Shown in pieces: positions 8,642 to 58,471 of a stretch of DNA of 64,000 bases (its first letter is position 1; every line of letters starts with the position of its first letter). The notes beneath the pieces were generated by a model. It did no database searches, was not told the origin of the DNA, and saw only the letters and a program-made list of their open reading frames with translations. Origin of the DNA: a virus; UHGV virus genome UHGV-0125821, one strand, 5' to 3'. A program made the translations under genes and the position numbers.

Positions 8642-8656
8642 TTAAATTTCTAACAT
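8642..8656. promoter_or_regulatory. Operator-like motif TTAAATTTCTAACAT (monovalent)
   Basis: Member of a recurrent asymmetric motif family with consensus TTA(G/A)(T/A)TTTCTAACA(T/C). Confidence 0.4.
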
Positions 8657-8742
8657 AGTGTATTTATATACACTGTTGATCCTGGTGGATGGGATCGAGT
8701 AGGATCGCGGTCACTGCTTCGGTAGCGACTGCCAAAAAAAGC

Positions 8743-8768
8743 AAAAGCCGCTGAGAAGCGGCTTTTTG
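8743..8768 (+). terminator. Rho-independent terminator
   Basis: GC hairpin AGCCGC-TGAGAA-GCGGCT followed by TTTTT. Confidence 0.7.
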
Positions 8769-8828
8769 GTGTATAAATCCACTGGCATAGATTTATACGG
8801 TAGATAGATTTTTTCACGGAACTATCTG

Positions 8829-9791
8829 GTGAGTATTTTAAATTCAGTTTCAGTAACTTTCAACACTTCTGAGTATAAAAACAACACTGAATACCACAAA
8901 AAAATCAAAGGTCATCAGTTGAGTTTTTTTGCTCGTCATAGCGGTCTTATTTCCCCTTCACATAGCGCCATTATTGCCGAGTTCGCCAACCTGGCAGGGG
9001 CTACCGATGAATACATGATCCGTCGCTCATATGCTGATATGTCCGAGATTACAGGACGCAGTATTTCTACTGTGCGCCGGGCATTTGCTGAAGCGACGAA
9101 GTGCGGAATGCTTGTTAAGCAACATCAGGTAGCGAATAACAATGCCCAGGTGTGTAACGTATATCGGTTTACGACACAATTTCTCCACTTCATTCATGTA
9201 GCAATGGAGATAGGGGGTAAGCAGGGCATCAAATTTGCCAACGCCACAAAACTGGTTAAGCAGTTGATTTCAAAGGTTCGTTATTTTTTTGAAACTGGGA
9301 CCCCCCTGTTCAAATTGAACAAGTCCCCCTATGTTCAAAATGAACAGCCAATAGAAAATAAGAGTCACTCTATAGCCAAAAGAAGAGAAAGATCATGCGC
9401 GGTTCAGCCAAAGGCTTCACCAGCAGATAGTTCTCAAACGGATAACGGGGTACTGGATAAAAAACCAGTAATCAGGGAAGAACATACCAACCACTGCCTG
9501 GCGGCGGCAAAAGCGAGAGCTGCAAAGCGTCGTTCAGACGAGGGGCACGCAAAACGGCAGGCTCTGTATCGTACCGCTGAAAAGCTGGCAAAAAAATTTG
9601 CATGGATACGTAGTGCCGCTACCGCAGTGAATAAGCCTAAACAATCCAGTGCCCTGGATTTCTCAATGGATTATTCTGGCTCCCAGGGGTGTGCAACCAT
9701 TGGTGAAGCCTTTGACCTGATGAAACAGCGTGGCTATCGGTCTGAATTTGACCGTGAGGATTGGTCAATCCCGGCGGGCTTTAGGGGATGA
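8829..9791 (+). CDS. Hypothetical DNA-binding protein (winged-helix-like segment)
   Basis: 320-aa ORF with GTG start; segment ITGRSISTVRRAFAEATKCGMLV resembles an HTH. A replication-initiator (RepL-like) role is only a guess. Confidence 0.45.
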   Translation: MSILNSVSVTFNTSEYKNNTEYHKKIKGHQLSFFARHSGLISPSHSAIIAEFANLAGATDEYMIRRSYADMSEITGRSISTVRRAFAEATKCGMLVKQHQVANNNAQVCNVYRFTTQFLHFIHVAMEIGGKQGIKFANATKLVKQLISKVRYFFETGTPLFKLNKSPYVQNEQPIENKSHSIAKRRERSCAVQPKASPADSSQTDNGVLDKKPVIREEHTNHCLAAAKARAAKRRSDEGHAKRQALYRTAEKLAKKFAWIRSAATAVNKPKQSSALDFSMDYSGSQGCATIGEAFDLMKQRGYRSEFDREDWSIPAGFRG

Positions 9792-9842
9792 CCTGTGTGT
9801 CTACAAAACATCCCAATGATCGGAAAATGCTCGCTCGATAAT

Positions 9843-9873
9843 TTGTGTTAGAAAATTAATTTGCTGTTTCTAA
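9843..9873. promoter_or_regulatory. Bivalent operator-like site (GTTAGA-N16-TCTAA inverted pair) upstream of the c4/icd/ant-like module
   Basis: TGTGTTAGAAAATTAATTTGCTGTTTCTAAA; same core spacing as three other bivalent copies; positioned like P1 Op51. Confidence 0.45.
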
Positions 9874-10078
9874 ATCGGAATGTATGATCTGCATCATCGA
9901 CTGAAGTCATCCATTGCTGAAATTTTTAGTTGATCTTCCATGTTTTCAGGCTTATATTCATGTCGTCGTAGCAAATTCTGCGACCGGGTTTAGCAGCCTG
10001 AATACGAATGCGGACAACCGCAGATATCCGATATTGCGGTATTTTTGTGTCCGTAAAACCACGTTACGCCCGAATTAT

Positions 10079-10155
10079 GGTGGGGCGTGATGGGGAGGCT
10101 TCGGCCTGCTGGTTTCATTCGTGCCAGTCTGCTAACCCCGTCACGTCCTGCCACC
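10079..10155 (+). ncRNA. c4-like antisense immunity RNA (candidate)
   Basis: Long closing stem GGTGGGGCGTGA...TCACGTCCTGCCACC around an AGGC-TTCG-GCCT hairpin; internal CTGCTAAC is complementary to GTTTAGCAGC repeats at about 9988 and 10157, the second just upstream of the icd-like RBS. Boundaries approximate. Confidence 0.35.
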
Positions 10156-10205
10156 CGTTTAGCAGCGGGGCGCAGGTTGTTAAACCTACGAATGAGGCCG
10201 TAACT

Positions 10206-19311: not shown

Positions 19312-19313
19312 CC

Positions 19314-19574: not shown

Positions 19575-19710
19575 AAATAACAGGTTGGGTAAATGCCATG
19601 CGATTTACCCTCCTTGTTGATTAAGGTCACTCTTTACTCTAAAAGCAAATCCGACCTGTTGCATATAGACCATCCTTGAGTAGTATCTCTCTTGTTTTAC
19701 AAATCTAACG

Positions 19711-20205
19711 TTGTTGTTATTATTTTGCATATTTACTATCAATGGGTGTGTTAGAAAAATAGCGCGAAAGAGAAGGCGTCGCAGTGAATATTCTGAAACA
19801 TCCCCACATGCCGCAGCTCTTAGAGAACTGGAGAAAAACCCAGATCTAATCAAAAGGAACCATGAGCATTACGAGCAGGTTCGCGTCCTGGACTGGTTGT
19901 ATCGCAATATGCGTTATGTGTATGAGCATACTCACGCCACTCCAAACGGTGGCCTGCGAGGCAAAAGGACGGCAATAAAAATGGTGGCAGAGGGCCAAAA
20001 GAAGGGATATCCCGATCTTTCTATAGACCTTGCTTGTGGGGGATACCACGGAATGCGCATTGAGATGAAACATGGGAGAAATCGCCTGACTCCCGAACAA
20101 CTCGTCTGGATGACTCGCCTCACTGAAGCCGGTTACTACTGCTTTGAGGCGCGCAGTGCCGCTGAAGCCATAAAAGCTATCACGGAGTATGTTTGTCTTG
20201 ATTAA
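19711..20205 (+). CDS. VRR-NUC domain nuclease (start codon uncertain)
   Basis: C-terminal HATPNGG...GYPDLSIDL...IEMKHGRNRLTPEQLVWMTRL fits the VRR-NUC (PD-(D/E)xK) pattern; the track start is TTG and no well-supported in-frame start precedes the domain. Confidence 0.5.
   Translation: MLLLFCIFTINGCVRKIARKRRRRSEYSETSPHAAALRELEKNPDLIKRNHEHYEQVRVLDWLYRNMRYVYEHTHATPNGGLRGKRTAIKMVAEGQKKGYPDLSIDLACGGYHGMRIEMKHGRNRLTPEQLVWMTRLTEAGYYCFEARSAAEAIKAITEYVCLD
19747..19759. promoter_or_regulatory. Operator-like motif GTGTTAGAAAAAT
   Basis: Reverse-orientation copy of the recurrent motif; lies inside the 5-prime extension of the 19711 ORF. Confidence 0.35.
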
Positions 20206-20750: not shown

Positions 20751-20790
20751 TTTATTGCATCTTCCGATACCGTCATCAAACTAATAAAAT

Positions 20791-20805
20791 ATGTTAGAAA
20801 ACTAA
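20791..20805. promoter_or_regulatory. Operator-like motif (reverse complement of TTAGTTTTCTAACAT)
   Basis: Exact 15-mer shared with sites at 31322, 48135 and 43237; 25 nt upstream of the 20830 start. Confidence 0.45.
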
Positions 20806-22038: not shown

Positions 22039-22054
22039 TGTGTTAGAAATCTAA
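22039..22054. promoter_or_regulatory. Operator-like motif TGTGTTAGAAATCTAA
   Basis: Core GTTAGAA immediately followed by TCTAA; right after the 20830-22038 stop. Confidence 0.35.
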
Positions 22055-22196
22055 AATCACAATTCGAATGTATTGATTGTGAGGGTAACTTAACATAGAA
22101 TTTTCCTTGCTGGTGGGCGGTACCCACGTTTCGCTTGCTGGGCTTGATAGTCACTTATTGGTTATTGTTCGCCCACCAGCATTTAACAAATTAAAG

Positions 22197-22209
22197 TGTT
22201 AGAAAAATA
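22197..22209. promoter_or_regulatory. Operator-like motif GTGTTAGAAAAAT
   Basis: Same core as the other copies. Confidence 0.35.
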
Positions 22210-22547
22210 TAGTAACGCAAGAGCACGCTTTGGCACCGTGCAGGCCAAAGTTCAGCAGGTTTAGTGCGGAAAGTGGTTTCAGAGAGAGCACTTTGCGGAG
22301 TAAACGACAATACATGTTGAGCCACGGAAGGTCTTTTTAAGGTGTTCATTGATGATGGTCCGGCAGAGAGTAACGGTACATGCTGCATCTAATCATCAAT
22401 GCACATCTTCAACATTAAGGAGGCATAGGGATTTTTGTGGCGGTTACCTTTTGCCCTGAGTCTCCTTAATGTTGCAGTAATGCACCTATGCGGATGTGGC
22501 CTTGCATTGTGTCTTGAAAGAATGGGGTAAGGCCGGGGATATCCCCA

Positions 22548-23272: not shown

Positions 23273-23348
23273 GATGGTGTAGCTCAGCGGTTAGAGCGGT
23301 TGACTGTTAATCAACGGGTCGATGGTTCAAATCCATCCACCATCGCCA
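23273..23348 (+). tRNA. tRNA-Asn (anticodon GTT)
   Basis: Manual fold: 7-bp acceptor GATGGTG/CACCATC, D-arm GCTC..GAGC, anticodon loop CTGTTAA, T-arm GATGG-TTCAAAT-CCATC, 3-prime CCA. Confidence 0.9.
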
Positions 23349-23350: not shown

Positions 23351-23426
23351 GCCGGTTTAGCTCAGTTGGTAGAGCGCCTGCCTTGTAAGCAGGATGTCAG
23401 CGGTTCGAGTCCGTTAACCGGCACCA
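23351..23426 (+). tRNA. tRNA-Thr (anticodon TGT)
   Basis: Acceptor GCCGGTT/AACCGGC, anticodon loop CTTGTAA, T-loop TTCGAGT, 3-prime CCA; 2 nt after tRNA-Asn. Confidence 0.9.
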
Positions 23427-23847: not shown

Positions 23848-23934
23848 GGAGAGTAGGGAGCATGGTGCTCAAACGGTCTTGAAAACCGTCCCATTGCGCA
23901 AGCGATGATGGTTCGATTCCATTACTCTCCGCCA
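23848..23934 (+). tRNA. tRNA-Ser-like gene (anticodon TGA, long variable arm)
   Basis: Manual fold: acceptor GGAGAGT/ACTCTCC, anticodon stem ACGGT/ACCGT with loop CTTGAAA, 4-bp variable-arm hairpin, T-arm GATGG-TTCGATT-CCATT, discriminator G and CCA; D-arm short (3 bp). Confidence 0.45.
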
Positions 23935-25375: not shown

Positions 25376-25451
25376 GGCCCTTTAGCTCAGTGGTTAGAGC
25401 AGGCGACTCATAATCGCACGGTCACCGGTTCAAATCCGGTAGGGGCCACCA
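25376..25451 (+). tRNA. tRNA-Ile (anticodon CAT, lysidine type; tRNA-Met not excluded)
   Basis: GGCCCTTTAGCTCAGTGGTTAGAGCAGGCGACTCATAATCGC... closely resembles E. coli ileX/ileY tRNA; 3-prime CCA encoded. Confidence 0.85.
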
Positions 25452-26482: not shown

Positions 26483-26874
26483 TGTACGGGACTACCAAAT
26501 TAAGCACTCAACAGGCCACCAATATGGAGTGGTCTATCGCTAACTGTAAGATCGTGTCATGCAATGCCACGCGTACTGATGTGGGCCATAAAAGCACTAT
26601 AACAGGCTATCTAGTAATGACCACCAGGGGGATGAGGGTTAGCTTTCGCTGGAAAGCAGAGCAAGTAACGCCATTCAGAGAGCCATCAATGCCGCTGCAG
26701 GTTGAGCAGGATTATCTATGTTTACCAGAAATAGATGGCGGAATGCTGGTGGAGTCTGATGGTAGTAAGGCTGATTTTGAAGCCAATTTGAAGCTGGCAC
26801 AGGCCGTAATCAATAGTTATCGCGGAAAGTGGATCGCAAAAGTGAAACATGTTGTTCGTTTGTCTCGCTGGTAG
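26482..26874 (+). CDS. Hypothetical protein
   Basis: 130-aa ORF, start overlapping the upstream stop. Confidence 0.5.
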   Translation: MYGTTKLSTQQATNMEWSIANCKIVSCNATRTDVGHKSTITGYLVMTTRGMRVSFRWKAEQVTPFREPSMPLQVEQDYLCLPEIDGGMLVESDGSKADFEANLKLAQAVINSYRGKWIAKVKHVVRLSRW

Positions 26875-26890
26875 CGTTAGGTATTTAATA

Positions 26891-26906
26891 TTAATTTTCT
26901 AATACA
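26891..26906. promoter_or_regulatory. Operator-like motif TTAATTTTCTAATACA (variant core TCTAATA)
   Basis: About 80 nt upstream of the lpa-position gene; in P1 the lpa promoter is C1-controlled. Confidence 0.4.
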
Positions 26907-30244: not shown

Positions 30245-30271
30245 AGCCCCGCGATGCGGGGCCGGTTGTGA

Positions 30272-31309
30272 TTACCAGAGCTTCGCGGCGTACTGCGTTT
30301 GGGGGAATGTGTATCCGTAACGTTCTTCGATTGCTTTGCCGTATTTTTTACGAGCTTCATTCAGTTTAATGCCGGTCAGGTCGTCTCCAGAGGCCATCAT
30401 TACGTCTAACAATTCCAGATCCATTTTATCCAGCCTTGCCATTGCTTCACGTGATGTACGTATCTTACGCTCAATGATATGGCGAATAGCCGGATCGGCA
30501 TCCTCCAGCATCTTAGCGGATTTCTGCTTAAGGCTTTCATTGCGAATATCGATGTTCCTTAAGATGTACGACTTCGCAACGTAGCTTGGCTGGTGTTTTT
30601 CCAGGTCACGAACACGATATAAGTTAAAATCGCCGAGAAGGCTGCAAGGTACCGATTCGACGCCAGAATAAATTGTAATGCTCCGGCGTTCACCAACATT
30701 ATTGACAACGGGGATCGTTGTCTTCGGTAGTCTTGCGAAAACCAATGCACCATGTGCGCCAACTCTAAAGCGAGAAAGGGCATTGCTGCCTTCGATGTTT
30801 GTTGTCAGCACAACATCTGTATATGCCTCTTTACGCGCCCGGTAGATCTCGCCTTCAGGCTCAGCTTCAAAGAAGCGCTGTTCTTCTTCAAGATCGCCTA
30901 CGATTTGAGAAAAAACCCTATTTTTCAGGCTTTTCTTTATGATTTTGTCGTATTTTTTTAGCAATTGTTCACGTGTAAATGTACGTGTTGTTGTAGCGCT
31001 TTGCACAACGACATGCGTGCTTTGATTGGTGTCCTCAATGATGAATGGGATCGGAGAATATACAGACTCAACAATGTTCGACGCTTTGCCGTCGGCATCG
31101 CGGCACATGTCAACGAAGGCTTTCCATTCAGCAAGACATTTTTCAGCTTCTTCTAATATGTTTTGGTCATGCGTTAATGCAACATGGCGGAATTCCTCGC
31201 CAGCATAACTGGTATCATGGAAAACAGAGTTTGCGACCACCAGCTCTTTCCACCGTTCAGCGGTTTGCAGGAACCGTTTGTACTCTTTCTCGATCGACTT
31301 CTTACTCAT
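30272..31309 (-). CDS. Hypothetical protein in the c1 position (candidate C1-type immunity repressor)
   Basis: 345-aa ORF between pacB and rox/dre, where c1 lies in P1; operator-like motif 13 nt upstream of its start; sequence not recognised. Confidence 0.5.
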   Translation of the reverse strand: MSKKSIEKEYKRFLQTAERWKELVVANSVFHDTSYAGEEFRHVALTHDQNILEEAEKCLAEWKAFVDMCRDADGKASNIVESVYSPIPFIIEDTNQSTHVVVQSATTTRTFTREQLLKKYDKIIKKSLKNRVFSQIVGDLEEEQRFFEAEPEGEIYRARKEAYTDVVLTTNIEGSNALSRFRVGAHGALVFARLPKTTIPVVNNVGERRSITIYSGVESVPCSLLGDFNLYRVRDLEKHQPSYVAKSYILRNIDIRNESLKQKSAKMLEDADPAIRHIIERKIRTSREAMARLDKMDLELLDVMMASGDDLTGIKLNEARKKYGKAIEERYGYTFPQTQYAAKLW

Positions 31310-31321
31310 TATTCCTACTCG

Positions 31322-31338
31322 ATTTAGTTTTCTAACAT
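31322..31338. promoter_or_regulatory. Operator-like motif ATTTAGTTTTCTAACAT at the 5-prime end of the c1-position gene
   Basis: Exact shared 15-mer; position suggests autoregulation. Confidence 0.45.
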
Positions 31339-31520
31339 AAAATTACTATGACAAATTTATGTCGAATAACAGAGTGAGTAAAGGATCGAACTGTGATTTT
31401 TTGTCATCAATTTTAGAAAACCAACCGTAGAAACCACACTTCGCAAATTAAAGACCATGAAGGCAACGTGTTACTGGTCATCATCAATCTATGATGGGTT
31501 AAAAAAAAATCGGCATTTTA

Positions 31521-32733: not shown

Positions 32734-32734
32734 A

Positions 32735-32750
32735 TTAAATTTCTAACACA
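32735..32750. promoter_or_regulatory. Operator-like motif TTAAATTTCTAACACA
   Basis: Immediately after the dre stop and upstream of the next operon. Confidence 0.4.
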
Positions 32751-32806
32751 TCTTTTTAGATTGATGTCTTTGCTGTAAAGTACCCTCGCCTATTTCGGAG
32801 GGTGCT

Positions 32807-41223: not shown

Positions 41224-41419
41224 GCTTCACCTCGATAGGCTTGATGGTGTCTAACAGCAGTCGACGGCGCGTATTTTCTGCAAAGTGGCGGCGTCCGGTA
41301 TCTTTGTGGTAAAACTCATTTTTGCCGACGACCCACATCCGCTCTGTTTGGTGCAGTTTTTTTACCTGCGGACCGTCTTTGGTGATCACGGTGCCGGTAT
41401 GGGTTTTTACGATTGTCAT
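41216..41419 (-). CDS. Hypothetical small protein
   Basis: 67-aa ORF overlapping neighbours. Confidence 0.35.
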   Translation of the reverse strand: MTIVKTHTGTVITKDGPQVKKLHQTERMWVVGKNEFYHKDTGRRHFAENTRRRLLLDTIKPIEVKHV

Positions 41420-41502
41420 GCCACTACCTCTTCGAACAGATGAACGAGACAGGCCGATGCTCGTCCACCTAAAAAGCTGACGACTTGATGCATACTCACG
41501 GT

Positions 41503-42195: not shown

Positions 42196-42199
42196 CTCA

Positions 42200-43195
42200 T
42201 CAGTTATTGAAAGTGATCACTCCGCGCTCGATGGCGAAGTCAAAAAGCTGGTTAGCGGCTACGTAAAGGCGTATGCCATGTGCTTTTTCCCATGCCCGAA
42301 CATCGTTTTCTGCGCTTCTGGCGCAGTCATCGCAAAGAGGAACAGCCCAGCGGTCGTGTTCGTTTAACGAGCGGGCGCGGTACATGAACGGGTGGTTAAC
42401 TTTGCCACCGCATCCGATGCACGGACGAGAAACCACAAACCGGAGATAAGCCGGGCTTTTACCGAGGACCGCTTTTGGTCGGCGCATATAAAGCAGACCG
42501 GAATCCTCATCTACAGACAGGTTGACGATCTGCTCTGCGGTTATGTCCACCAGCTCACGGGTGCTGTGCTCCCAGGTGATATCTGATTCTTTCAGCGTAC
42601 CGGTAGGGATTTCAGTTTTTGGCTGACAAAATGCAATGCGACCGGCTTCATCTGGCAGCTCATCTTTCAGATTCCGGCGAATGGCCCAAAAAGTGAGTTC
42701 AACCATGCTCAGATCGCGTTCTGGCGGTAGTTTTAACTCGCTCGCAGCCCAGTTCATAACCCAGTTGGCACGATTCAGGGATAACTGGTCGTCCAGCTTG
42801 CTGTACCCCTTCATCATGTATTCCGCATCATGCTTCCAGCACAGGCGAACGGCAGAGCCGTTATAGAAATGGGTGGTTAGCTGGTGGCTGCAATCGCGCT
42901 TATCGTGCGCCTGGCAATCGTGGATATTGGAACTTACCCAATGAACAAGCGAATCTTCACCGCCCAACGCGTTAAATACGCGCTCGCTTTGAAAAAACGG
43001 TTTCAGAGACTGGTTGGCAACCAGCGAATAATTCAGATCCACTACGCCATCTGGCGTGTTTTCAGCCTGTTCACGCGGAAGTGGGGAGATAATGAAACGG
43101 CGACCTGCGCCAATGTAGTTGCTGGTGGGCTTGTCTACCGGAAAGACAGCCACACCAGCTCCGTTTACGAAATGAGGTGTGATTATTGCACTCAT
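42200..43195 (-). CDS. Hypothetical protein with C-terminal Cys-rich zinc-binding-like motif
   Basis: 331 aa; CIGCGG...PLCDDC near the C-terminus; first gene after the bivalent operator. Confidence 0.5.
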   Translation of the reverse strand: MSAIITPHFVNGAGVAVFPVDKPTSNYIGAGRRFIISPLPREQAENTPDGVVDLNYSLVANQSLKPFFQSERVFNALGGEDSLVHWVSSNIHDCQAHDKRDCSHQLTTHFYNGSAVRLCWKHDAEYMMKGYSKLDDQLSLNRANWVMNWAASELKLPPERDLSMVELTFWAIRRNLKDELPDEAGRIAFCQPKTEIPTGTLKESDITWEHSTRELVDITAEQIVNLSVDEDSGLLYMRRPKAVLGKSPAYLRFVVSRPCIGCGGKVNHPFMYRARSLNEHDRWAVPLCDDCARSAENDVRAWEKAHGIRLYVAANQLFDFAIERGVITFNN

Positions 43196-43236
43196 AATGT
43201 ATACCGACTCTGTTTTGTTCCGAGCGGTAAAATAAT

Positions 43237-43270
43237 ATGTTAGAAAACTAAAATCAATGTTCTAACACAT
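43237..43270. promoter_or_regulatory. Bivalent operator-like site (GTTAGA-N16-TCTAAC)
   Basis: ATGTTAGAAAACTAAAATCAATGTTCTAACACAT, 25-60 nt upstream of the 42200-43195 start. Confidence 0.5.
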
Positions 43271-43292
43271 TTTGAGTGCGTAAATGATTTGA

Positions 43293-43985
43293 TCAGACTT
43301 TAAGCTGCCCTCCCTTCACCTGCATTAGCGTCAGATTTCCACAAAAAACCGCGCCCGTGTCTATGTAGTGCTGATTCCAGTATGCTTTTGGTCTTCGTAC
43401 CGGTGTGTGCCCAAAGATAAAGCGATCTGCGCCTGTGATTTCTCCACCAATGCCATCTATCGAATCACCGACGCGACTGCGCGACCAGACAACATCAAAA
43501 AGCGATACATCCTTACCGAACTGGTACTCTCCACCTGGATAGTCGGCATGGGCTATAACGATAGTTTCATGTCCGGTGTTCAACTCAATGATATATGGCA
43601 GACGCTTTACCAGCTCCACCAGCGCCTTGGCTAATATTTCCTGATCAGTGTCCAGCATGAAGAACCATTGTCCGCCATTCATTAGCCAGTTATTCACGTT
43701 GCCATCTGGACTTAACGCATCAAGCATCAACCGCTCATGGTTCCCCATTACTGCCCTGAACCAGGGCATCTGCAATAGTTCCAGACATTCGACATTTTCA
43801 GTACCGCGATCGATAAGGTCGCCAACCGATATCAGTAAATCCTGCGCCGGGTCAAAATCCACACGATGGAGTTCGGACATCAGTCTGGTGTAGCAACCAT
43901 GCAGATCACCAACTACCCATATGTTTCTGTAGCCAGAACCATCAATACGGCTATATAAATTCACTTCATGCATAGCTTGGATCAT
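43293..43985 (-). CDS. Ser/Thr protein phosphatase, lambda-PPase-like metallophosphoesterase
   Basis: Motifs VVGDLHG, GDLIDRG and GNHE; start at 43985 gives an ATGA overlap with the upstream stop. Confidence 0.85.
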
Positions 43986-44293
43986 GCGGCAACCTTCTCC
44001 CGCAGCCAGATACAAACTGGACCATCTTCAGTGTCATGAATAGAGCCAACAAACCAGCCTTCACCCTCTGGTCGCTCCGGTTCCCAGGCGGCAATATCGG
44101 GACCAGCTGCGTCCATATCAAAATCATCTTCATCCATACTGCGAATAGTCCACTGAAGATTATTTTCCTTCATCCAGGCGTCAAATTCCTCAGTGGAAAT
44201 ATATTCACGACCTGCGCAAAACTTCTCATACTCCGGATGTGTCCAGCAGCCATATTCATCACGTTCTACCGGCATTTCTTTAATTGTGTTCAC
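43982..44293 (-). CDS. Hypothetical acidic protein
   Basis: 103 aa. Confidence 0.45.
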
Positions 44294-44514
44294 TCTTCAT
44301 CCTCCAAATCAGCAACCGCGTCCATCACATCAGAACCGCGAATAACTTCAAAAGCGCGGCAGGCCATTTGAAATACCCGTTGCTCTTGCGGGTGCGGAGA
44401 CTCCCAATATTTGAAGCCTGGGCGATGCGTGTACCCCATCATGGAATAAAAATCGCCAGCAAGTTCAATCGCGGCATCAACAAGTTCGCGATTTGTCATC
44501 GTCTGTTCTGTCAT
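44290..44514 (-). CDS. Hypothetical small protein
   Basis: 74 aa; 4-nt overlaps. Confidence 0.4.
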   Translation of the reverse strand: MTEQTMTNRELVDAAIELAGDFYSMMGYTHRPGFKYWESPHPQEQRVFQMACRAFEVIRGSDVMDAVADLEDEE

Positions 44515-44801
44515 TTGGTTTTCTCCTGTCTGAACATCACTATCATCAGGTCGCCTTTTGTCGCTATTCTGGCTGTTGTGCCTGGTTCAATGCTGCCAAG
44601 TTCAAATGCGTCATAGAACGCTTCTAATGCCTTCTGGCGTAGTTCCTGTTTGCGCCGTTTTTTCCACTGTTTCAGGAAAATGGAACCCAGCCATCGCCAT
44701 GTACGGGACATGATGTAAAGCCAACCGAGAAGTGCCAGACCGGAATTTAGGAGCGTATCGATCGTTATTGTCGTGTCGATATTCATTGGATTCTGCCTCA
44801 T
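44511..44801 (-). CDS. Hypothetical small membrane protein
   Basis: 96 aa with one hydrophobic helix. Confidence 0.4.
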   Translation of the reverse strand: MRQNPMNIDTTITIDTLLNSGLALLGWLYIMSRTWRWLGSIFLKQWKKRRKQELRQKALEAFYDAFELGSIEPGTTARIATKGDLMIVMFRQEKTK

Positions 44802-44877
44802 CTTTTTTCATCGTATCCCCCTCCCATGCGGGGCGACGGTGCGCCCCGTTAAAATTCAAAGTGATCAAATTCGTCAT

Positions 44878-45201
44878 TCATTTTCTTAAGTCCTCTTCCC
44901 GGATAACGTTGTTGCACGCATCCACACACTCGTCGCAGATGAAAACGTCTTCCCCGGCAATTAACTTTTTGACGGCGTGCTGTGGTTTATTGCAGAAGCT
45001 GCAATAAAGCGTTCGCCTGACTGATACGGATGGTGCGCCAGATGTCAGCCGCGCGATGTCGTTCTTGCGACGCAATATCACACGGCTGCACTCGACCAGC
45101 ATCTCCGGGGATATCTTCTCCTCCGTAGCGAGCGTTTCTAATCGTTCGAGTATGTGGAAGGCTTTTTCCTGGGTAATTGCAGAATGCGATGTGGTCATCA
45201 T
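44878..45201 (-). CDS. Small protein with ClpX-type N-terminal zinc-binding-domain-like C4 module
   Basis: [39 protein letters not shown] parallels the ClpX N-domain ([40 protein letters not shown]); no AAA+ module. Confidence 0.6.
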
Positions 45202-45866
45202 CTTTTCCCTTCAAAGTTCGGGCGCAGGCAGGATTGTCCTTTACGAAGCAGGGCTGCGAACCTGTCAGCCGCATCCGCGCAAGCAGAAGCAACGGAATCA
45301 AAAAATGGATCATCTCCGGTATCGCGCATCGTCAAAGCGAATGCCTCCAATCCCTGAGCCTGTATTTCAACAAGGTAAGCTTCAGATGTAGTGCTTTTCG
45401 CCTCGCCTAATTTGTTATGAGCTATGTTCGCTACACATGCGATGTCTATATCTGGATGATTAATTGGGAGATGGCTAAGAATTTCCTCAAGTGCTGCTTT
45501 TTTGTTTTGGCATTCCGCCACCAGCGCCCCGCAATTGCTTTCCAGCTCTGCAATACACTTTTTAGCGGCTTCCAGCTCAACACGCAGATTCTCAAGCGTT
45601 AGAGCCATCTCCACGTTCTCGTCCAGCAGTTCAATCACATCAGGATCGCTATCATCAACTACTGTTATGCGCGATTTTTTGTAATGCTCGTCAGCATAAG
45701 TTCGTCCAGTTTTGAAGCATCCGTCATCCTCCATGCCAGAACAGGCATAAACAACATGTGATCCAGATATGCGCTGCATTGACATTTCCTCGCCACAAAC
45801 AGAGCATTTAGGCGCTGGTTTCGGTGAAAAACGTTCACGTAACGTCTGATAATAAAGCTCGCTCAC
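45198..45866 (-). CDS. Paralog-family early protein (Cys-rich variant)
   Basis: N-terminus [13 protein letters not shown]; shares the conserved upstream junction. Confidence 0.5.
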
Positions 45867-46372
45867 TGGATGACTCCTTTACGAAGCTGTTCGGCGATAT
45901 CTTCGAGAACGCCATCAGAGAATGAGCGATCAAAATCGCCTTCCGGCGCATTAGCCATAAACTCAGTAGAGGTAAGAATCATCCGGGCAATATCCGCGGC
46001 GTTCTTCGCAGTATCATCAATAAAACCAGCTTTCCAGGCAGCCAGCATTCTGTTCGCCACAAAGTAAGCGCCCTCCTTGCGTGCTTCAGTCTTCACTTCA
46101 TCCAGGAAAGTGTCGGTCGCAGGAGTAGTTTTTTGTGGTGATAGGGCGATACGAATTGTTTCAAGAGCTGGATCTATTTCCACTGTTGGCACCTTGATAA
46201 AACCAAGCTGCACGCCATTCATAATGAACGTGCGGCGATCCTCACATATCGCCTTCAGTCTCGCATTCTCCGCAGCCAGCGCCGCGCGCTCTTTCTCAAG
46301 TCGGGAAATTTCCGTTACATACTCAGCGTTACGCTCTGCCAGTTGTGCGGGCGTTAAACCTTCAGACTTCAT
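45863..46372 (-). CDS. Paralog-family early protein (coiled-coil)
   Basis: C-terminus [11 protein letters not shown] and the shared junction. Confidence 0.5.
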   Translation of the reverse strand: MKSEGLTPAQLAERNAEYVTEISRLEKERAALAAENARLKAICEDRRTFIMNGVQLGFIKVPTVEIDPALETIRIALSPQKTTPATDTFLDEVKTEARKEGAYFVANRMLAAWKAGFIDDTAKNAADIARMILTSTEFMANAPEGDFDRSFSDGVLEDIAEQLRKGVIQ

Positions 46373-46679
46373 ACACTCTCCTTTCGAAATAAACGTACTG
46401 ATTAATCATGCCCAGGGGCATTTCGAGTTTTTCCGCGATCTCACGGCGGGGAACACCACACTGATGAAGCTGCCGTGCCAGTTCTATATCGCTCTGCCGG
46501 TATTTGGCTGACGGATGAAAGTCTCCTTTCAGAATCATGCTGATCCCCAACTCCCGCGCTTTAGTCCTGACGGCATCACCGGTACGACCGATCAGCTTCC
46601 CAATACTCTCGACCGTCATAGTTCCGGCGCACTGGCGGAGTATCATGATTTCTGCCCTTCCCCATCCCCGCCAGCTCAC
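46362..46679 (-). CDS. Small HTH-containing protein
   Basis: 105 aa; IGKLIGRTGDAVRTKARELG looks like an HTH. Confidence 0.45.
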   Translation of the reverse strand: MSWRGWGRAEIMILRQCAGTMTVESIGKLIGRTGDAVRTKARELGISMILKGDFHPSAKYRQSDIELARQLHQCGVPRREIAEKLEMPLGMINQYVYFERRVYEV

Positions 46680-47314
46680 GCAGAACTCCTTCTAACCAAA
46701 AGAACGCCATCTTCAGAAACAACGTTGCAGGACTTCAGGTAATTCATTGCCTCTTTCGGTAATGGATTCTTTGGATCGGCGTTTGCCAGGGATTTCGATA
46801 ACCTCATGATAAATTTGATCATTACCTTCTGGCGGAGCTTGTGCTCATGAGATAAAGAAAGGTAATAGGAAATGGTATGGGCTAAACGCTCACGAAGCTG
46901 TTCTGTGCCGTGATATACAGCAGCGATATCACGCAGTGCATTGACCAGTTCCCGGTAAATATGTGGAGCAACCTGGCATTCAATGTTGGTTGGTGACTCA
47001 TAAATTACAGTCAGCCCCAGCTTTTCAGCCAGCGCGTGCTCTGCACGAGCACCAACCGATTCTTCCCATTGATTGAGCAAATAGATCGCATCAGCAGAAC
47101 GCACCATTGCCAGGCAAATATCCATGTATTCACTCTGGCAAAGGCCACCAGGTAACACCGCTGGATTCAGAACGATATGCCCTTCAGCCATCAGCTCGCT
47201 CGCTTTCGCATTAAACGCCGCACGGTTGTAATCTGGATAACCAGTCATCGGCCCCGCGATGTAAATTTTCAAAACACGTTTCACCATCAAAATTTCCCCA
47301 AAATCGTGACGCAA
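46676..47314 (-). CDS. DUF4406-like (nucleoside 2-deoxyribosyltransferase-fold) protein with C-terminal extension
   Basis: KIYIAGPMTGYPDYNRAAF...HIVLNPA...DAIYLL fits the DUF4406 pattern; start may be the internal Met at about 47287. Confidence 0.5.
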   Translation of the reverse strand: MRHDFGEILMVKRVLKIYIAGPMTGYPDYNRAAFNAKASELMAEGHIVLNPAVLPGGLCQSEYMDICLAMVRSADAIYLLNQWEESVGARAEHALAEKLGLTVIYESPTNIECQVAPHIYRELVNALRDIAAVYHGTEQLRERLAHTISYYLSLSHEHKLRQKVMIKFIMRLSKSLANADPKNPLPKEAMNYLKSCNVVSEDGVLLVRRSSA

Positions 47315-47480
47315 AACATAAGCACTGCGAAAAGCTCAATACCAAGCTCAAGTAGCGCCAACGCCCCGAAAAACAACACATAGAACAGGCCAATCTCATT
47401 CACAGATGGCTGGTGGATCGCACTTAAAGCTATAAGCATCATGTCCTCCAAACAGTTATCAGGAATGATATTAATGTTTT

Positions 47481-47510
47481 GTGTTAGAAAATCAATTTTG
47501 AATATCTAAC
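47481..47510. promoter_or_regulatory. Bivalent operator-like site between divergent ref and the minus-strand early operon
   Basis: GTGTTAGAAAATCAATTTTGAATATCTAAC with 16-bp core spacing; P1 ref is C1-controlled. Confidence 0.5.
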
Positions 47511-47559
47511 TGTTTTGATCAATCATAGAAAAATAGCTGAAAAGTAAGAGGCAGCCATC

Positions 47560-48138
47560 ATGCAGAAACAGAGCTATTGGGAGAAACAGAGACAAAAAGC
47601 CATGCAAAAATTGGCTGACCCAGCCTGGCGAGAGGAACAAAGGGCAAAGCGCCTTCAACAAGCTCAACGCCAGCAGCAACGAGCGAGAGAAAAAGCCGCA
47701 TCGCCTGAATATCGGCAAAAGAGAATTGAAAAAGCAAAGCAATATGACCAGCGGAGAAAAGAGAAAACTGTATCCGCTCCGTCCAAAAAAACACGCACGT
47801 CACGCGGCCTGAAGGGCAGATCACTCACAGCCGATGAACGCCGGATACAGACCGCTATCGGTACTCTCCCCTGCATTGCCTGCCATATTCACGGGCAACA
47901 TAGCCCAGTGGTATCCCTGCACCATATCTTCGGGAGAACGGCAGAGAACGCGCATAAATATGTCCTCCCTTTGTGTAAATGGCACCACCAGTACGCAGCG
48001 CCAGCCGAGGTCCGAGAACAATATCCCTGGCTGGTCCCTGTTCATGCTGACGGAAAAATAGGCGGAAAAGCAGATTTCATGCGGCACAATGCCGATGAAA
48101 TGACGTTATATCAGATGGCGATTGAATTGATAAATTAG
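47560..48138 (+). CDS. ref: Ref-like HNH endonuclease (recombination enhancement function)
   Basis: Basic disordered N-terminal region followed by Cys/His-rich core CIACHIHGQH...LCKWHHQ, as in P1 Ref; size close to P1 Ref. Confidence 0.8.
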   Translation: MQKQSYWEKQRQKAMQKLADPAWREEQRAKRLQQAQRQQQRAREKAASPEYRQKRIEKAKQYDQRRKEKTVSAPSKKTRTSRGLKGRSLTADERRIQTAIGTLPCIACHIHGQHSPVVSLHHIFGRTAENAHKYVLPLCKWHHQYAAPAEVREQYPWLVPVHADGKIGGKADFMRHNADEMTLYQMAIELIN

Positions 48139-48149
48139 TTTTCTAACAT
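48135..48149. promoter_or_regulatory. Operator-like motif TTAGTTTTCTAACAT right after the ref stop
   Basis: Exact shared 15-mer. Confidence 0.4.
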
Positions 48150-48469
48150 TTTAAGTTGAATTGTAAATTTCTCCGATGTACATTCACTACCGATTGGCAC
48201 ACCGGTCAACTTTTTGAGACAAACTGTTTAGTTTTTCGTATTATTGCCGCCGCCATACCTATGGCGGTGCAATATAGGTGGCTGAAAAGCCCCCGTTGAC
48301 TCACGGTGTTCCAGCCTTTATTGCGCCGCCACCAGACCGTGGAACAGTCGATGGCGGCTCCGAAAGCAAGGAGTCACTACACTATGAACAACTACAGTCT
48401 TTTCCCATCACTCGTCGTCCACCACTCACGCGATAATCTGCATTCTTTACTCGCGCTGGGGGTGTCAAA

Positions 48470-48637: not shown

Positions 48638-48742
48638 AATACTGACTGTTGCGCCCTGGCATTATCGTGGGGTATATTTCTACGGCACCTTAGAAAAACG
48701 GGTGCCGGGATTGGAACCCCGGATAATGCAAAAGGCGACACA

Positions 48743-48766
48743 GACGCCGAAAGCGTCTTTTTTTTT
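48743..48766 (+). terminator. Rho-independent terminator
   Basis: GACGC-CGAAA-GCGTC followed by nine T. Confidence 0.75.
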
Positions 48767-48815
48767 GTGTCATGCCATCGCACAGCCATACGTAGCGTTT
48801 AGCTCAGAGATCAAT

Positions 48816-48891
48816 GGTAGTGCTGGCTGGGCTGCCGAAAGGCAGGCCGGTTCCCTTTTGCGCCGGTAGTTCCAACCCAGTCAGTGCTACC
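48816..48891 (+). ncRNA. Second c4-like antisense RNA (candidate)
   Basis: Stem GGTAGTGCTGG...CCAGTCAGTGCTACC around a CTGCC-GAAA-GGCAG hairpin; internal GGTAGTTCCAA is complementary to TTGGAAC...GGTAGC around the RBS of the icd-like ORF. Boundaries approximate. Confidence 0.3.
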
Positions 48892-48951
48892 GCCATTGAG
48901 ATTGGAACCTCACGCGGTAGCTCCTTAAATTAGCAAAAGGAGGCTGCCAAT

Positions 48952-49643: not shown

Positions 49644-50477
49644 TCACGAATCTCTCTGACAATTCAGAAACATAAACGCCCGCTTGTCTGTTAAATCCGT
49701 AACATAATACTCTCTCATGCCTGTAGGTTTTATTCTACGAGCATATACAAACTTATGAACTGGTTGTTTTTCCCCATAACTTACATCAGTCCTAAATTCA
49801 TCAACCACGCTACCATCTTTTTCAGTTTCCTTTCTCACTAGCTGATTTTCTAATACAGGCTTTGATTCGTCCATGCCACTAAAAGCATCCTGACCTGTGC
49901 TGTTGCCTCGGTTTCCGCGTGGCAAATCCCATGAAAAATAAGTGCCATAGTCAGTAATCACACGATCCCATGTTCCGGAATCCCCCATATAGTTAGAACG
50001 CTCCCCCTTGTAAGTTACAGCCACCTTACAGGCATACGTTTCACCATTATTTTTTTTATCATGTCCAGCCATGCTTGCAGGAGTTGCAGGGGAATTATGA
50101 ATAGATGCGCTTACATCATCTTGCGTTAATTCCTCAACTGGAGCAAATTCATATATGGGTGTGCCGAGGCTATTTAAATATAACTTATATCTAACCCTAA
50201 GCGCACTTCCATCAGAGAATTCATACGTTCCCAGACATTGGAGCTTATTTTTTTCTCTTATCTCATTGATCTGATTATAAGCATCAATTACAGAGATTGC
50301 TTCCTGATCGTCCTTAAGCAGTTCATTATAATCATCGATTAACATCTGTCTGGTTTTAGGGGCATTACAGTCAATTTTGCTAAAATCATAAGCAAAGGCA
50401 AATGTGGGAACAGAGAGAGCAACAACAGTAGCAAGTATTGTTGAGGAACATCTTTTCCCATTTTTTATAAAAAACAT
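49644..50477 (-). CDS. Secreted/exported hypothetical protein (AT-rich cargo)
   Basis: Start at the internal Met (50477) gives a signal peptide MFFIKNGKRCSSTILATVVALSVPTFAFA with GGAG upstream; the track start at 50555 is less likely. Confidence 0.5.
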   Translation of the reverse strand: MFFIKNGKRCSSTILATVVALSVPTFAFAYDFSKIDCNAPKTRQMLIDDYNELLKDDQEAISVIDAYNQINEIREKNKLQCLGTYEFSDGSALRVRYKLYLNSLGTPIYEFAPVEELTQDDVSASIHNSPATPASMAGHDKKNNGETYACKVAVTYKGERSNYMGDSGTWDRVITDYGTYFSWDLPRGNRGNSTGQDAFSGMDESKPVLENQLVRKETEKDGSVVDEFRTDVSYGEKQPVHKFVYARRIKPTGMREYYVTDLTDKRAFMFLNCQRDS

Positions 50478-50821
50478 TTCATTAACTCCATACTTTACCA
50501 TCTTAGCCGCGAGCGCGGTCCCTAAAACCCTTAACTTCACTGCACCGTCCTTCATGCAATCAAAATGACTTTTATGTTATAAAAATAATCAGCAAAATCA
50601 ACATGATTTAGGCCAAATTTCGGTCAAAAATAAAATCCACAAAAAGTGGTTGACACTATTTTGGAAATCACAAACTGCACATAATCCATCGCGCTAACGG
50701 CTCCCGTTGAAGGTTCTTTTGACGATTAACTTTCAGCCGAAGCGCGGTAGGGAGTCATAACGCCAAAGCAGGCCGCCATGTGCGGCCTTTTTTTGTATCC
50801 GTCATCCGTGGAGGAAGGACA

Positions 50822-51475: not shown

Positions 51476-51803
51476 TCACATTAGTAGCTTTGTTAACTCC
51501 CTCAATACCAGGTAGAAGAGTAACAAAAATATTGACGCGAGTATTTGAGTGGTCAATGAAGCGTTCATAAACAGATCAATTAGCATTAATAATTCGAAGA
51601 TAACATCCATGTCATTCACTCCGTTTAATTTTTAATCTAATGCCAGCAAATGAAGCTGGCCCCCGCATAAAGATTAATGAAAGTCACTTGTCACCAGTGA
51701 GGGGATTTATGAACCACATCCCCCTGAACTGGTGGCCTGTCTGTTTCTCGCATTTCACACCCTGCATACAGTTTCCCCCAGGTTATGACTGAGAGGCTTT
51801 GTT

Positions 51804-56025: not shown

Positions 56026-56789
56026 CTTCAAATAAAACCCTCCTGGCGCGAACAGGTGAATGGCAAACCTCACGCACAGGAAAATTCCAGACCACGGGCT
56101 TTGAAAACGTGGATAACGCGTTTGCGACGCTAATCAGCAACATTTTTTCTGATATCTTACTGGTGGCCCCCGCGCCGGAAGAAAAACGCTTTGCGTCATT
56201 CCTGAATCGTCCACCAGCAGAGCGTGTCTATGTGGCCCGTTTCGACAATGCGATCGAGTTTCTTAAAGCAGTTCGTCGCGCAAATGCCGGGCAAGGGAGA
56301 AAACCTGAAAACCAGAACATTAACCGGGATGCTCTCCCCCTGGTCAATATCTCACGCACTATGGATATCAATTATATCAACGATGATCAGCAGATTGACC
56401 GCAAAAAAGTAGCCAGTTTTTGCGAACCGGATACCGGAATGCCTTTAGCAGAACTGGAATACACCCAGGCCATTCTGACGTATGACGTTACGTTAATGGC
56501 AACTGATAAAGCGACCATGAGTCTGATGTGTAATTCGCTGGGCGCACGGCTTCGCCTGATGACAGGTACACAATTTGAAGCAACCACTCACCTTGTTCGT
56601 GTCCCGGTCCCGCTGATTTGCTCGATACAGGATGCCAAAGAAGTCGGCTTTACGGATGTTTCAGCACCAATTGGAGAAGAGCGTATTTATGCCACACAAG
56701 CGCCGATAAGTGTGATTGCAGACGTGATCACAGCATGGGAGTTGGACGCAAAACGTATTATTACCGAAACCTCGATATCTATGGGGTGA
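56022..56789 (+). CDS. Hypothetical protein (possible baseplate module)
   Basis: 255 aa; 4-nt overlap upstream. Confidence 0.45.
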   Translation: MTSNKTLLARTGEWQTSRTGKFQTTGFENVDNAFATLISNIFSDILLVAPAPEEKRFASFLNRPPAERVYVARFDNAIEFLKAVRRANAGQGRKPENQNINRDALPLVNISRTMDINYINDDQQIDRKKVASFCEPDTGMPLAELEYTQAILTYDVTLMATDKATMSLMCNSLGARLRLMTGTQFEATTHLVRVPVPLICSIQDAKEVGFTDVSAPIGEERIYATQAPISVIADVITAWELDAKRIITETSISMG

Positions 56790-56792
56790 TAA

Positions 56793-57773
56793 GTGGCCCA
56801 GGAGTTACAACAATATTTTCTACAGTCAGTGCTCATTAACGATAACAAAGTGCCACGAGACTGGATTTTTACCGCAGTATATGTAGAAAAAACCAGCCTC
56901 AAAGCCCCTTTGCTAAAACTGGAAATTCATGACGCTACCGGCACCGTAATTGATGACTGGAAAGCCAAATACGGTGCATCGCTGGTGGCTGAAATGGGCG
57001 ATCCAAACGGTAATGCAGGCACTTTTAAAACAGATTTCTTTGTTACGTCTGCAATGCTGGCTGGTGATGTTGTTACCGTTATTGCTGTCAGTGAAGACGT
57101 GCGCAGGTTTAAGATCCCCTCCCCGCGCACAAATTTACATACCAACAAAACACCAGACGCTATATTCAAGGCATATTCCGGCAAACTTAAAATTACCAGC
57201 AGCGTGCTAAAACGCGCAGTTACATATCATCTGAATGCCGGTGACAAACCGTCAAAAATGCTTTCGGAGATAGCGCGAGACAAAGGTGCATTGTGTTGGG
57301 TATGTCGGGGGGAATTTAACTTTTACACCCTGGCTGATCTGATGAAGCAAACGCCATCATTTACCTACGAGGGGAATAACCCTAAAGCAGAATACACTTT
57401 GTCCAAAATGCGCCTACTCCAACAGGAACATGCGACAACAGCAAAGAATCAATATCGTTTTGTTGGGTATTCCATGACCGATGGCTACGTCGAATATGGC
57501 GATAGCTCACTCCCAGTGCGTTATATATCCGACTCTGATATGGAAACTCTTCGCAATATGCAGCTGTCTCTCGTCCCCAAAATGGATATAGAAGTCGCAG
57601 GCAATCCTGATATAAAACCGGGGATGGTAATAGAGATTATCGTATACCGCTATGACCAGGAAAACCGCATTGATGAATCAATGCCCCGTAAGCTGATAGT
57701 AAAAAATGTTGCGCACTTTGAGGACCGCGTAGGCTACACAACACGAATGATATTGGGAGTGCCTAACAAATGA
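56793..57773 (+). CDS. Hypothetical structural protein (possible baseplate hub)
   Basis: 326 aa immediately upstream of the spike-like gene. Confidence 0.45.
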   Translation: MAQELQQYFLQSVLINDNKVPRDWIFTAVYVEKTSLKAPLLKLEIHDATGTVIDDWKAKYGASLVAEMGDPNGNAGTFKTDFFVTSAMLAGDVVTVIAVSEDVRRFKIPSPRTNLHTNKTPDAIFKAYSGKLKITSSVLKRAVTYHLNAGDKPSKMLSEIARDKGALCWVCRGEFNFYTLADLMKQTPSFTYEGNNPKAEYTLSKMRLLQQEHATTAKNQYRFVGYSMTDGYVEYGDSSLPVRYISDSDMETLRNMQLSLVPKMDIEVAGNPDIKPGMVIEIIVYRYDQENRIDESMPRKLIVKNVAHFEDRVGYTTRMILGVPNK

Positions 57774-58423
57774 AGCGTAGAGCGCAAATTGTTGGAACTG
57801 TGCACCCGGCAGGGCTTATGCGTGCTCAAGTCCGTGTTTTACCTGACTGGAATGGCGTTCCTGATGACGATCTACCCTGGGCGGAATACCAGTTACCCAT
57901 CGGGAACGCTTTTGTACCTACAGTCAAAGGTGACCTGGTCTGGGTAGAGTTTCCTTATTTAGATGTTAACGGTCGAATAGACACCAGACGCCCAATGATA
58001 GTTGGTGCCGCTCAGGATGCACCGGGAGGAATTCCAAACGTTGCACCAGAAGCATCTGGCAAAGGCAACGGCTGGACGCCGCCGGAAGTAGATGGAGCAC
58101 CTCCCCGCCCCCAAATCTCAGCAACGAAAGACTTCGTTATTCACCGCAACAATATTCTTGAAGTACGAACTGCTGGTGGCGGCTATGAAATTGCCAATAC
58201 GGCAGCAGGCTCAAGGATTGGCATGAATGAGTCCGGGCAGATATATATCATTGGTCCGGCTGATGTAATCGTGAATGCAGGAGGGAGTGTTAACGTCAAA
58301 TCAGCCAACAACATCAATGTTAATGGGGAAAATATAGCTGTCACCGCTAACGGAGACATAGCTTTCAAGGCAGGAGGAACCTTTCAGGCCACTGCTGGCA
58401 ACTTCGATTTCAAGAAAGGATAG
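57770..58423 (+). CDS. Baseplate central spike-like protein (gpV/gp5-type OB fold plus beta-helix)
   Basis: N-terminal GTVHPAG...DLVWVEFPYLDVNGR...PMIVGA resembles P2 gpV/Mu gp45; C-terminal repeats (VNAGGSVNVKSANNINVNGENIAVTANGDIAF). Confidence 0.5.
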   Translation: MKRRAQIVGTVHPAGLMRAQVRVLPDWNGVPDDDLPWAEYQLPIGNAFVPTVKGDLVWVEFPYLDVNGRIDTRRPMIVGAAQDAPGGIPNVAPEASGKGNGWTPPEVDGAPPRPQISATKDFVIHRNNILEVRTAGGGYEIANTAAGSRIGMNESGQIYIIGPADVIVNAGGSVNVKSANNINVNGENIAVTANGDIAFKAGGTFQATAGNFDFKKG

Positions 58424-58437
58424 AAAATGCACCCATT

Positions 58438-58471
58438 TGTGTTAGATAATTAATATGTATTTTCTAACACA
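58438..58471. promoter_or_regulatory. Bivalent operator-like site immediately upstream of rdgC
   Basis: TGTGTTAGATAAT-TAATATGT-ATTTTCTAACACA: 13-bp arms matching 12/13 as an inverted repeat, 8-bp AT spacer; ends 12 nt before the ATG. Confidence 0.5.

Follow-up and report, generated by a model that had tools for sequence, protein, structure and literature searches.

In bacteriophage P1, lytic replication is blocked by the C1 repressor, which acts on asymmetric operators; it likewise represses the antirepressor operon, lpa, and further early genes, and it autoregulates (PMC8546580). P1 has 22 C1 operators with the asymmetric consensus ATTGCTCTAATAAATTT (PMC8546580). The DNA analyzed here is a stretch of 64,000 nucleotides from UHGV virus genome UHGV-0125821. 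This whole stretch is called the window, and it represents about 70% of the element. Judged by nucleotide identity and gene content, the window is an E. coli D6-like phage-plasmid of the P1-like type, a close relative of phage D6 and not D6 itself. D6 is a P1-like plasmid prophage. A motif of 16 bp recurs in the window, and it is very probably the operator through which a C1-type master repressor encoded by the element itself (positions 30272-31309) acts. The sites would thus form a heteroimmune C1-operator network. The motif is tied to the repressor by its presence at the positions of P1 operators, by its invariance within spacers that cannot otherwise be aligned, and by its covariation with the type of C1.

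The initial annotation of the window, made from the letters alone, had described a P1-like element, and nucleotide identity and gene mapping place it close to D6. Identity to Escherichia phage D6 (immC fragment AY753669; complete genome MF356679) is 99.2-99.4% over positions 28000-34000. The gene order around c1 in the window is pacA-pacB-c1-rox-dre. The order in P1 is pacA-pacB-c1-coi-lox-cre, with c1 in the same place.

All 13 positions at which the motif had been listed do have a copy, at most 2 nt away. The 15-mer TTAGTTTTCTAACAT with up to three mismatches has 17 matches in the window versus 1.97 expected, and none of 100 dinucleotide-preserving shuffles reach 17. Alignment of the 13 copies gives an informative stretch of 16 bp, TTAnTTTTCTAACAYA. 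Its 3' two-thirds are nearly invariant and the 5' TTA is well conserved, so that conservation is asymmetric. The single-site form of the predicted operator is TTAGTTTTCTAACATA. A hidden dyad in the single sites, TTAG-N4-CTAA, was rejected, as the C is invariant but the G of TTAG, which would be its partner by symmetry, varies. A matrix scan of the window finds 18 sites of at least 14 bits versus 0.4 in Markov controls. A cut at 13.9 bits adds the site at 19693, giving the working set of 19 sites. The sites beyond those originally listed are 19693, 31409, 50573, the right-hand halves 43254 and 58456, and the doubtful 49842. A candidate at 14251 inside darB was rejected: it has three mismatches, scores below 8 bits, and is conserved because it is coding. 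With the same matrix the complete D6 genome (91 kb) also has 19 sites, only one of which is inside the 27-kb structural block of tail, baseplate, and capsid genes.

The sites are concentrated between genes. Non-coding DNA makes up 11.8% of the window, and it holds 17 of the 19 sites (binomial P=2e-14). Similarly the unbiased 8-mer TTCTAACA occurs 13 times, and all but one of these occurrences (12/13) are non-coding. The initial annotation had raised the prospect that the motif is equally frequent in coding DNA, which would mark it as an artefact, and the two counts show that this is clearly not so.

The P1 RefSeq record annotates experimentally defined C1 operators, and these were the basis of a gene-by-gene comparison with the sites of the window (Table 1). 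The motif had been said to be distributed like the C1 operators of P1, and it does occupy the same gene neighborhoods. P1 has Oc1 sites upstream of c1, and the window has 31324 and 31409 there. The distance from the start of the operator to the lpa ATG is 87 bp for P1 Olpa and 92 bp for the window site. P1 OrepL/Op53 is ahead of kilA-repL, as 8642 is ahead of repL. P1 Oc4/Op51 is ~100 bp before the a1 target of the C4 RNA, and the 9844 site is 108 bp before the a1b1 target. In P1, Oref precedes ref and Oppp heads the ppp operon; the 47480 pair precedes ref and also heads the divergent operon that contains ppp. Omat is on the ref stop codon of P1, and 48135 is likewise on the ref stop codon. 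Odmt/Op68 precedes uhr-hrdC-dmt, and the 58438 pair precedes rdgC(hrdC)-dcm-dam. For the pmg region, P1 has O26/Op82 ahead of pmgL-pmgM, along with OpmgRa/b (Op86) and OpmgT (after pap), while the window has 19693 and 19747 near pmgM and 20790 and 22039 around pmgR-pmgS. P1 Obanab precedes trnA (Asn), trnT (Thr), tci, and ban, and 22039 and 22195 precede the Asn, Thr, Ser, and CAT tRNAs. The P1 operators Ossb and that of ban have no counterpart in the window because those genes are absent.

Table 1. Predicted operators, the candidate repressor gene, and tRNA genes of the window
Feature	Position	Strand or form	Score and remarks
Predicted operator upstream of repL (lytic replication)	8642..8657	+	24.7 bits, intergenic
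Predicted operator ahead of immI-like module 1 (a1b1, C4 RNA, icd, antirepressor)	9844..9877	paired	left half 27.2 bits
Weak predicted operator before pmgM	19693..19708	-	13.9 bits
Predicted operator in annotated 5' end of pmgM	19747..19762	-	22.6 bits
Predicted operator between pmgR and pmgS	20790..20805	-	26.3 bits
Predicted operator directly after pmgS stop codon, upstream of + strand tRNA cluster	22039..22054	-	25.4 bits
Second predicted operator upstream of tRNA cluster	22195..22210	-	20.2 bits, intergenic
Four tRNA genes (Asn, Thr, Ser, CAT anticodon)	23273-23348, 23351-23426, 23848-23934, 25376-25451	+	Rfam and ARAGORN
Bivalent predicted operator upstream of lpa (late-gene activator)	26873..26906	paired	right half 23.8 bits, left half 8.6 bits
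c1 gene, 345-aa D6-type C1 repressor, proposed to bind the motif	30272..31309	-	homology and position
Predicted c1 operator, proposed to be autoregulatory	31324..31339	+	26.3 bits, 15 bp upstream of c1 ATG
Second, weaker predicted c1 operator	31409..31424	-	15.1 bits, inverted, 85 bp from first
Predicted operator directly after dre stop codon, ahead of D6_117-dut	32735..32750	+	25.5 bits
Bivalent predicted operator ahead of pdcB (DUF968) and following - strand genes	43236..43269	strict pair	26.3 and 15.8 bits
Bivalent predicted operator between ref (+) and divergent - strand operon D6_88..ppp	47480..47513	strict pair	24.0 and 6.0 bits
Predicted operator overlapping ref stop codon, ahead of immI-like module 2	48135..48150	+	23.9 bits
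Doubtful site inside simB	49842..49857	+	17.5 bits, coding DNA; also in D6; no other support
Degenerate predicted operator between simB (-) and mat (+)	50573..50588	-	19.1 bits, intergenic; also in D6
Bivalent predicted operator ahead of rdgC(hrdC)-dcm-dam operon	58438..58471	strict pair	23.9 and 15.9 bits

Some of the sites form inverted pairs with a single geometry. The strict form GTTAGA-N16-TCTAAC is found three times in the window versus 0.01 expected. The relaxed form GTTAG-N17-TCTAA is found five times, at 9847, 26876, 43239, 47483, and 58441, and there are no relaxed pairs in the window at the other spacings from 12 to 24. The initial annotation had reported four inverted pairs; the fixed spacing holds, while the count is only roughly right. 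Every pair has one strong half and one weak half. The partner half at 9847 is very poor (-7.6 bits), keeping only TCTAA at the fixed spacing, and it is doubtful. The lpa pair is degenerate in the window, GTTAGg-N16-TCTAAt, and is perfect in a Shigella relative. Each pair consists of two 16-mers 2 bp apart, with TCTAA cores that point outward and are 22 bp apart. This is about two helical turns, suggesting that the two cores are on the same face of the helix. The motif is also found in both orientations relative to genes. Both orientations together with inverted pairs of fixed geometry are expected of a protein-binding site and not of a promoter element. A different arrangement is present after the dre stop codon, where an inverted TTAGA lies 9 bp beyond the site (TCTAA-N9-TTAGA, 32742-32760); it is the only convergent arrangement near a site.

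The protein proposed to bind the motif is encoded next to the strongest conserved site. The 345-aa product of 30272-31309 had been proposed as the repressor by its position, and sequence similarity shows it to be genuinely, though very remotely, homologous to P1 C1. It is 99.7% identical to D6 C1, and it is 21% identical to P1 C1 over 268 aa (pairwise BLASTP, E=1e-8). Both the window C1 and P1 C1 belong to phrog_1678 (E=5e-170 and 3e-140). Precomputed annotation records Pfam family PF27008, Phage_P7_repressor_C1, for all homologues of the window C1; a Pfam search run locally gave no hit for the window protein, and a search against PDB sequences gave none. The gene is between pacB and rox/dre, matching the location of c1 in P1. 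The C1 family is small, with 132 representatives among 1.84 billion proteins.

The system is of the same kind as that of P1 but has a different specificity. The P1 consensus given in the initial annotation was correct, and with up to three mismatches it has no matches in the window. Conversely no D6-type sites of at least 14 bits are found in the 93 kb of P1. The proposal that the motif departs from the P1 operator and that the repressor has an altered specificity agrees with this lack of cross-matches, since the two words, TTAnTTTTCTAACAYA here and ATTGCTCTAAT in P1, are unrelated apart from a common TCTAA core. The two systems are alike in having asymmetric, dispersed sites of 16-17 bp in similar number (about 19-20 versus 22), both single and paired, and in the combination of a strong half and a degenerate half, as in P1 Oc1ab. 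In contrast, the P1 pairs of Obanab and Oc1ab have the form CTAAT-N6-ATTAG, with cores that converge and are ~12 bp apart. They consist of two 17-mers whose tails share 6 bp, whereas the halves in the window do not overlap. D6-type C1 also differs from P1 C1 in having an extra helical C-terminal tail of about 60-70 aa.

The accessory functions of the P1 circuit differ as well. P1 Coi, ImcA, ImcB, and Lxc have no tblastn hit of E<=0.01 in the window, which covers about 70% of the element, and no Coi or Lxc modulators are annotated in the D6 record either. The lxc gene has been found to be missing from D6-like plasmids (PMC6799933). The window also has no Ant1/2 or KilA homologues, and in contrast to P1 it has two C4-RNA modules, with an antirepressor of the Roi/Rha type. 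The network resembles lambda-type CI in that a master repressor would keep the prophage state and regulate its own gene. However, lambda-type CI has an unrelated fold and binds as dimers to symmetric operators clustered at OL/OR, while the sites in the window are asymmetric and scattered.

Relatives of the element show how the motif and the repressor vary together. A tblastn search detects the D6 type of repressor in 149 plasmid records, with a range of identities, and some of these records also have resistance genes. In relatives with C1 proteins 80, 69, and 68% identical, the spacer between c1 and dre is partly unalignable, yet both c1 operators and rox are invariant. For example, the TTTTCTAA core of the 31409 site is invariant within otherwise unalignable DNA, and the site has a counterpart in relative loci L014 and L015. 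The motif also recurs in these relatives at the same gene junctions, with 9 and 12 copies versus about 1.3 expected. The site between pmgR and pmgS has counterparts in L009, L010, and L014, the 43236 pair has counterparts in L009, L010, and L015, and the position after dre is occupied in all four of these loci (L009, L010, L014, and L015). The motif core also occupies the same positions, including that upstream of c1, in relatives with C1 proteins of 51% and 44% identity. The D6-type motif is absent from phage-plasmids of Leclercia (NZ_CP042508) and Citrobacter (NZ_CP099368), in which C1 is about 29-30% identical. These two elements have a recurrent (A/T)TTCTAAGG instead, which is nearly confined to spacers and occurs upstream of both c1 and ref as well as after the recombinase stop codon. 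In the Citrobacter element this motif occupies the position that corresponds to the site after dre. There is no enrichment of (A/T)TTCTAAGG in the window. The Citrobacter and Leclercia systems have the same C1 family, the same order terminase-c1-recombinase, the same motif positions, and a common TTCTAA core, but they differ in having G rather than C after TCTAA and in the 5' part. From the sequences compared, this motif appears to be a third C1 immunity specificity. The three specificities have the TCTAA core in common and differ in the flanks: immediately 3' of the core, P1 has T, the window has C, and the Citrobacter/Leclercia type has G.

One relative has kept only a small part of the phage-plasmid. 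Plasmid pK91 of Salmonella Typhi (NZ_CP029871, locus L007) is a conjugative IncFIB resistance plasmid with qnrS1, blaTEM-1, sul2, and tetA. It retains a D6-like fragment only, consisting of humD, phd/doc, dut, dre, c1, and part of pacB, and both c1 operators are intact. The resident C1 on pK91 might make the cell immune to D6-type phage-plasmids.

Binding, stoichiometry, repression, and looping are proposed by analogy with P1 C1. The details of monomer binding and looping by P1 C1 were reportedly worked out by Heinrich et al. in 1995 and Heinzel et al. in 1994. One C1 molecule would occupy each asymmetric 16-bp site, as in P1, and two molecules would occupy each paired site. In the plasmid-prophage state, occupied sites would silence repL, the c4-icd-ant modules, and lpa. 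The genes for recombination and modification (ref and rdgC-dcm-dam) would likewise be silent, as would the pmg genes, the tRNA cluster, and the early - strand operon. The c1 gene may be autoregulated through the site beside its own ribosome-binding site together with the partner 85 bp upstream.

Several observations weigh against this interpretation. The promoter step is its weak point, since a sigma-70 consensus promoter scan around the sites finds nothing above chance. Site 19693 overlaps the -35 hexamer of a promoter-like TTTACA-16-TATTAT that matches at 10/12 positions; apart from it, the looser scan finds only weak 8/12 promoter matches overlapping the sites. Sites 8642, 26891, and 32735 have no convincing promoter in the direction of the gene. 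The looser scan also finds -35-like hexamers in the spacers of three pairs, facing downstream genes, including a TTGATT that faces pdcB in the 43236 pair and divergent hexamers in the 47480 pair. The sequence TAACAT, which is similar to a -10 hexamer, is inside sites 48135 and 50573. These matches are suggestive only. In addition, 13 of the scored sites had themselves gone into building the matrix, although the 15-mer shuffle test and the 8-mer count are independent of it. Finally, the covariation of the motif with the C1 type is confounded with the lineage of the whole element.

The motif could instead be bound by another lineage-specific regulator or by a host nucleoid protein; a small DNA-binding protein of the early operon or a factor linked to the antirepressor would be examples. 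The element does have several uncharacterised early genes. This is nevertheless improbable, because the strongest conserved site adjoins the ribosome-binding site of c1 itself and the map of sites matches the P1 C1 operators gene by gene. The accessory genes are mosaic among the relatives, while c1 is always present and the motif is retained. The motif is retained even in the hybrid plasmid pK91, which has kept only the c1-dre-dut segment of the phage-plasmid. A host factor would not recognize different motifs in elements that share the same hosts. Base composition is a still weaker explanation. Both the intergenic DNA and the motif are A+T-rich, but dinucleotide-preserving shuffles never reach the observed count and the pairs have a single fixed spacing. 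The sites are also invariant in divergent spacers, and P1 spacers, although similar in composition, do not have the motif. The probability that the motif is a chance or compositional artefact of A+T-rich spacers is therefore negligible.

The motif might also be a promoter element, such as a box for Lpa-dependent late promoters of D6-type phages. Lpa is divergent (32% identical to P1 Lpa), the P1 late box occurs only once in the window, and some sites precede pmgM and pmgS, which are described as 'putative morphogenetic' genes. However, the motif is absent from lydA-darA, prt-pro, darB, gp26-25, gp7-5, and, except for one site, from the 27-kb tail and capsid block. It precedes lpa itself, c1, repL, and the immI modules, none of which are late functions. 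It also occurs in both orientations to downstream genes and in inverted pairs, and P1 has C1 operators at the same pmg positions. The late-promoter explanation was rejected on the ground that late operons do not have the motif, and a promoter element of any kind is considered very unlikely.

D6-type late promoters probably use a box different from that of P1, because the other late operons do not have the P1 box and because of the low identity of Lpa. The sole occurrence of the P1 late box AAGTGACTT is a perfect late-promoter box (AAGTGACTT-N4-TANNNT) at 51671-51689, near the gp26 operon.

Part of this system was already known or to be expected. The P1-type system is textbook knowledge, the c1 gene of D6 was annotated as early as 2004, and a repressor that has diverged would be expected to recognize operators of its own. 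No repressor-binding sites or operator features are annotated in the public D6 GenBank records. A literature search found no link between D6 or D6-like elements and C1 operators, although the primary D6 papers of 2004 and 2018 were outside that search. An earlier description of D6 operators in those papers is possible, with a chance that we put at well under even. A search for the motif string gave only unrelated papers among the matches listed. Compared with the accessible record, what is new is the sequence of the operator, the map of its sites, and the geometry of the pairs. The retention of the word down to 44% C1 identity is also new, as is the existence of three or more specificities built on a single TCTAA core.

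E. coli, Salmonella, and Shigella commonly carry D6-like phage-plasmids, and the operator word would define the immunity group of these elements. It may be used to predict mutual exclusion among elements and to map the genes that are silent in the prophage state. For the relatives with 44-51% identical C1, homoimmunity at the level of C1 is predicted. The pair of repressor and operator would be a second, orthogonal C1-type pair beside the orthogonal Cre/lox and Dre/rox systems of the same two phages, which are in use already. With three natural specificities and a confident structure model, the question of how monomeric C1 reads an asymmetric site becomes directly testable.

To our knowledge, the DNA-binding fold of C1-family repressors (PF27008) has never been described. 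A first AlphaFold model of the window C1, made with 9 homologues, was mediocre, with a predicted local distance difference test (pLDDT) of 79 and other models at 57-62. A second model, made with 22 sequences including P1-type C1s, was consistent (pLDDT 86; five models at 83-86). A Foldseek search of the PDB with the first model gave four significant hits, all of them E. coli Tus on Ter DNA (E 1.5e-6 to 4.4e-5). The hits have a probability of 1.00 over 276-313 aligned columns, but the template modeling (TM) scores are only 0.27-0.32. Tus binds its asymmetric site as a monomer and recognizes it through long beta strands between its domains. The C1 model has long inter-domain strands at 99-112 and 155-171, and the latter bears the family-invariant residues R157 and R159. 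Profile searches against PDB sequences found no sequence link between C1 and Tus, and the 132 family representatives from 1.84 billion proteins, of which ten weak or Tus-sized hits were scanned, likewise gave none. A literature search found no paper naming C1 and Tus together. A likeness of the operator TATGTTAGAAAACTAA to Ter TATGTTGTAACTAA was also considered and is not significant, since 557 of 5000 shuffles do as well. It is tentatively suggested from the models that PF27008 repressors might be Tus-like monomeric binders. The strands with R157/R159 would read the TCTAA core, the flanks (in particular the 3' base) would set immunity, and the pairs would have been rearranged in the D6 type. 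If true, a family of phage repressors would be connected with the origin of the replication-fork trap protein of enterobacteria.

The rest of the window shows a close but mosaic relationship to D6 when all of the D6 genes are mapped onto it. Some window genes, namely rdgC, the antirepressor, and ddrA, are only 85-93% identical to D6. The second antirepressor D6_81/82 and tciA/B of D6 are absent. The best plasmid match for positions 40000-48000 is E. coli NZ_CP047013.1, with 99.9% identity. Rfam finds two C4 antisense-RNA modules in the window, at 9952-10158 and 48685-48897. Module 1 is complete, with the a1b1 target at 9952, C4 RNA at 10073, icd, and a Roi-type antirepressor. Module 2 has isrK at 48685, C4 RNA at 48810, and an icd that is truncated; the Rha/KilA-type antirepressor and pmgF, present here in D6, are missing.

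The annotated start of pmgM (window 19711-19795) is a TTG without a ribosome-binding site, and it is upstream of a good promoter-like site. Conservation with P1 PmgM begins at residue 29, and the predicted operator at 19747 is upstream of this conserved part. A short out-of-frame open reading frame with a good ribosome-binding site starts nearby, at GTG 19784. The four tRNA genes of the window are co-directional with the adjoining genes. The D6 record MF356679 has three tRNAs annotated on the strand opposite to their neighbors, apparently by mistake. The fourth tRNA of the window (CAT) falls in a segment that is unlike D6. A full-length glutaminyl-tRNA synthetase gene is present at 60999-62660 and is annotated in D6 too; it is unusual cargo for a phage-plasmid that carries tRNAs.

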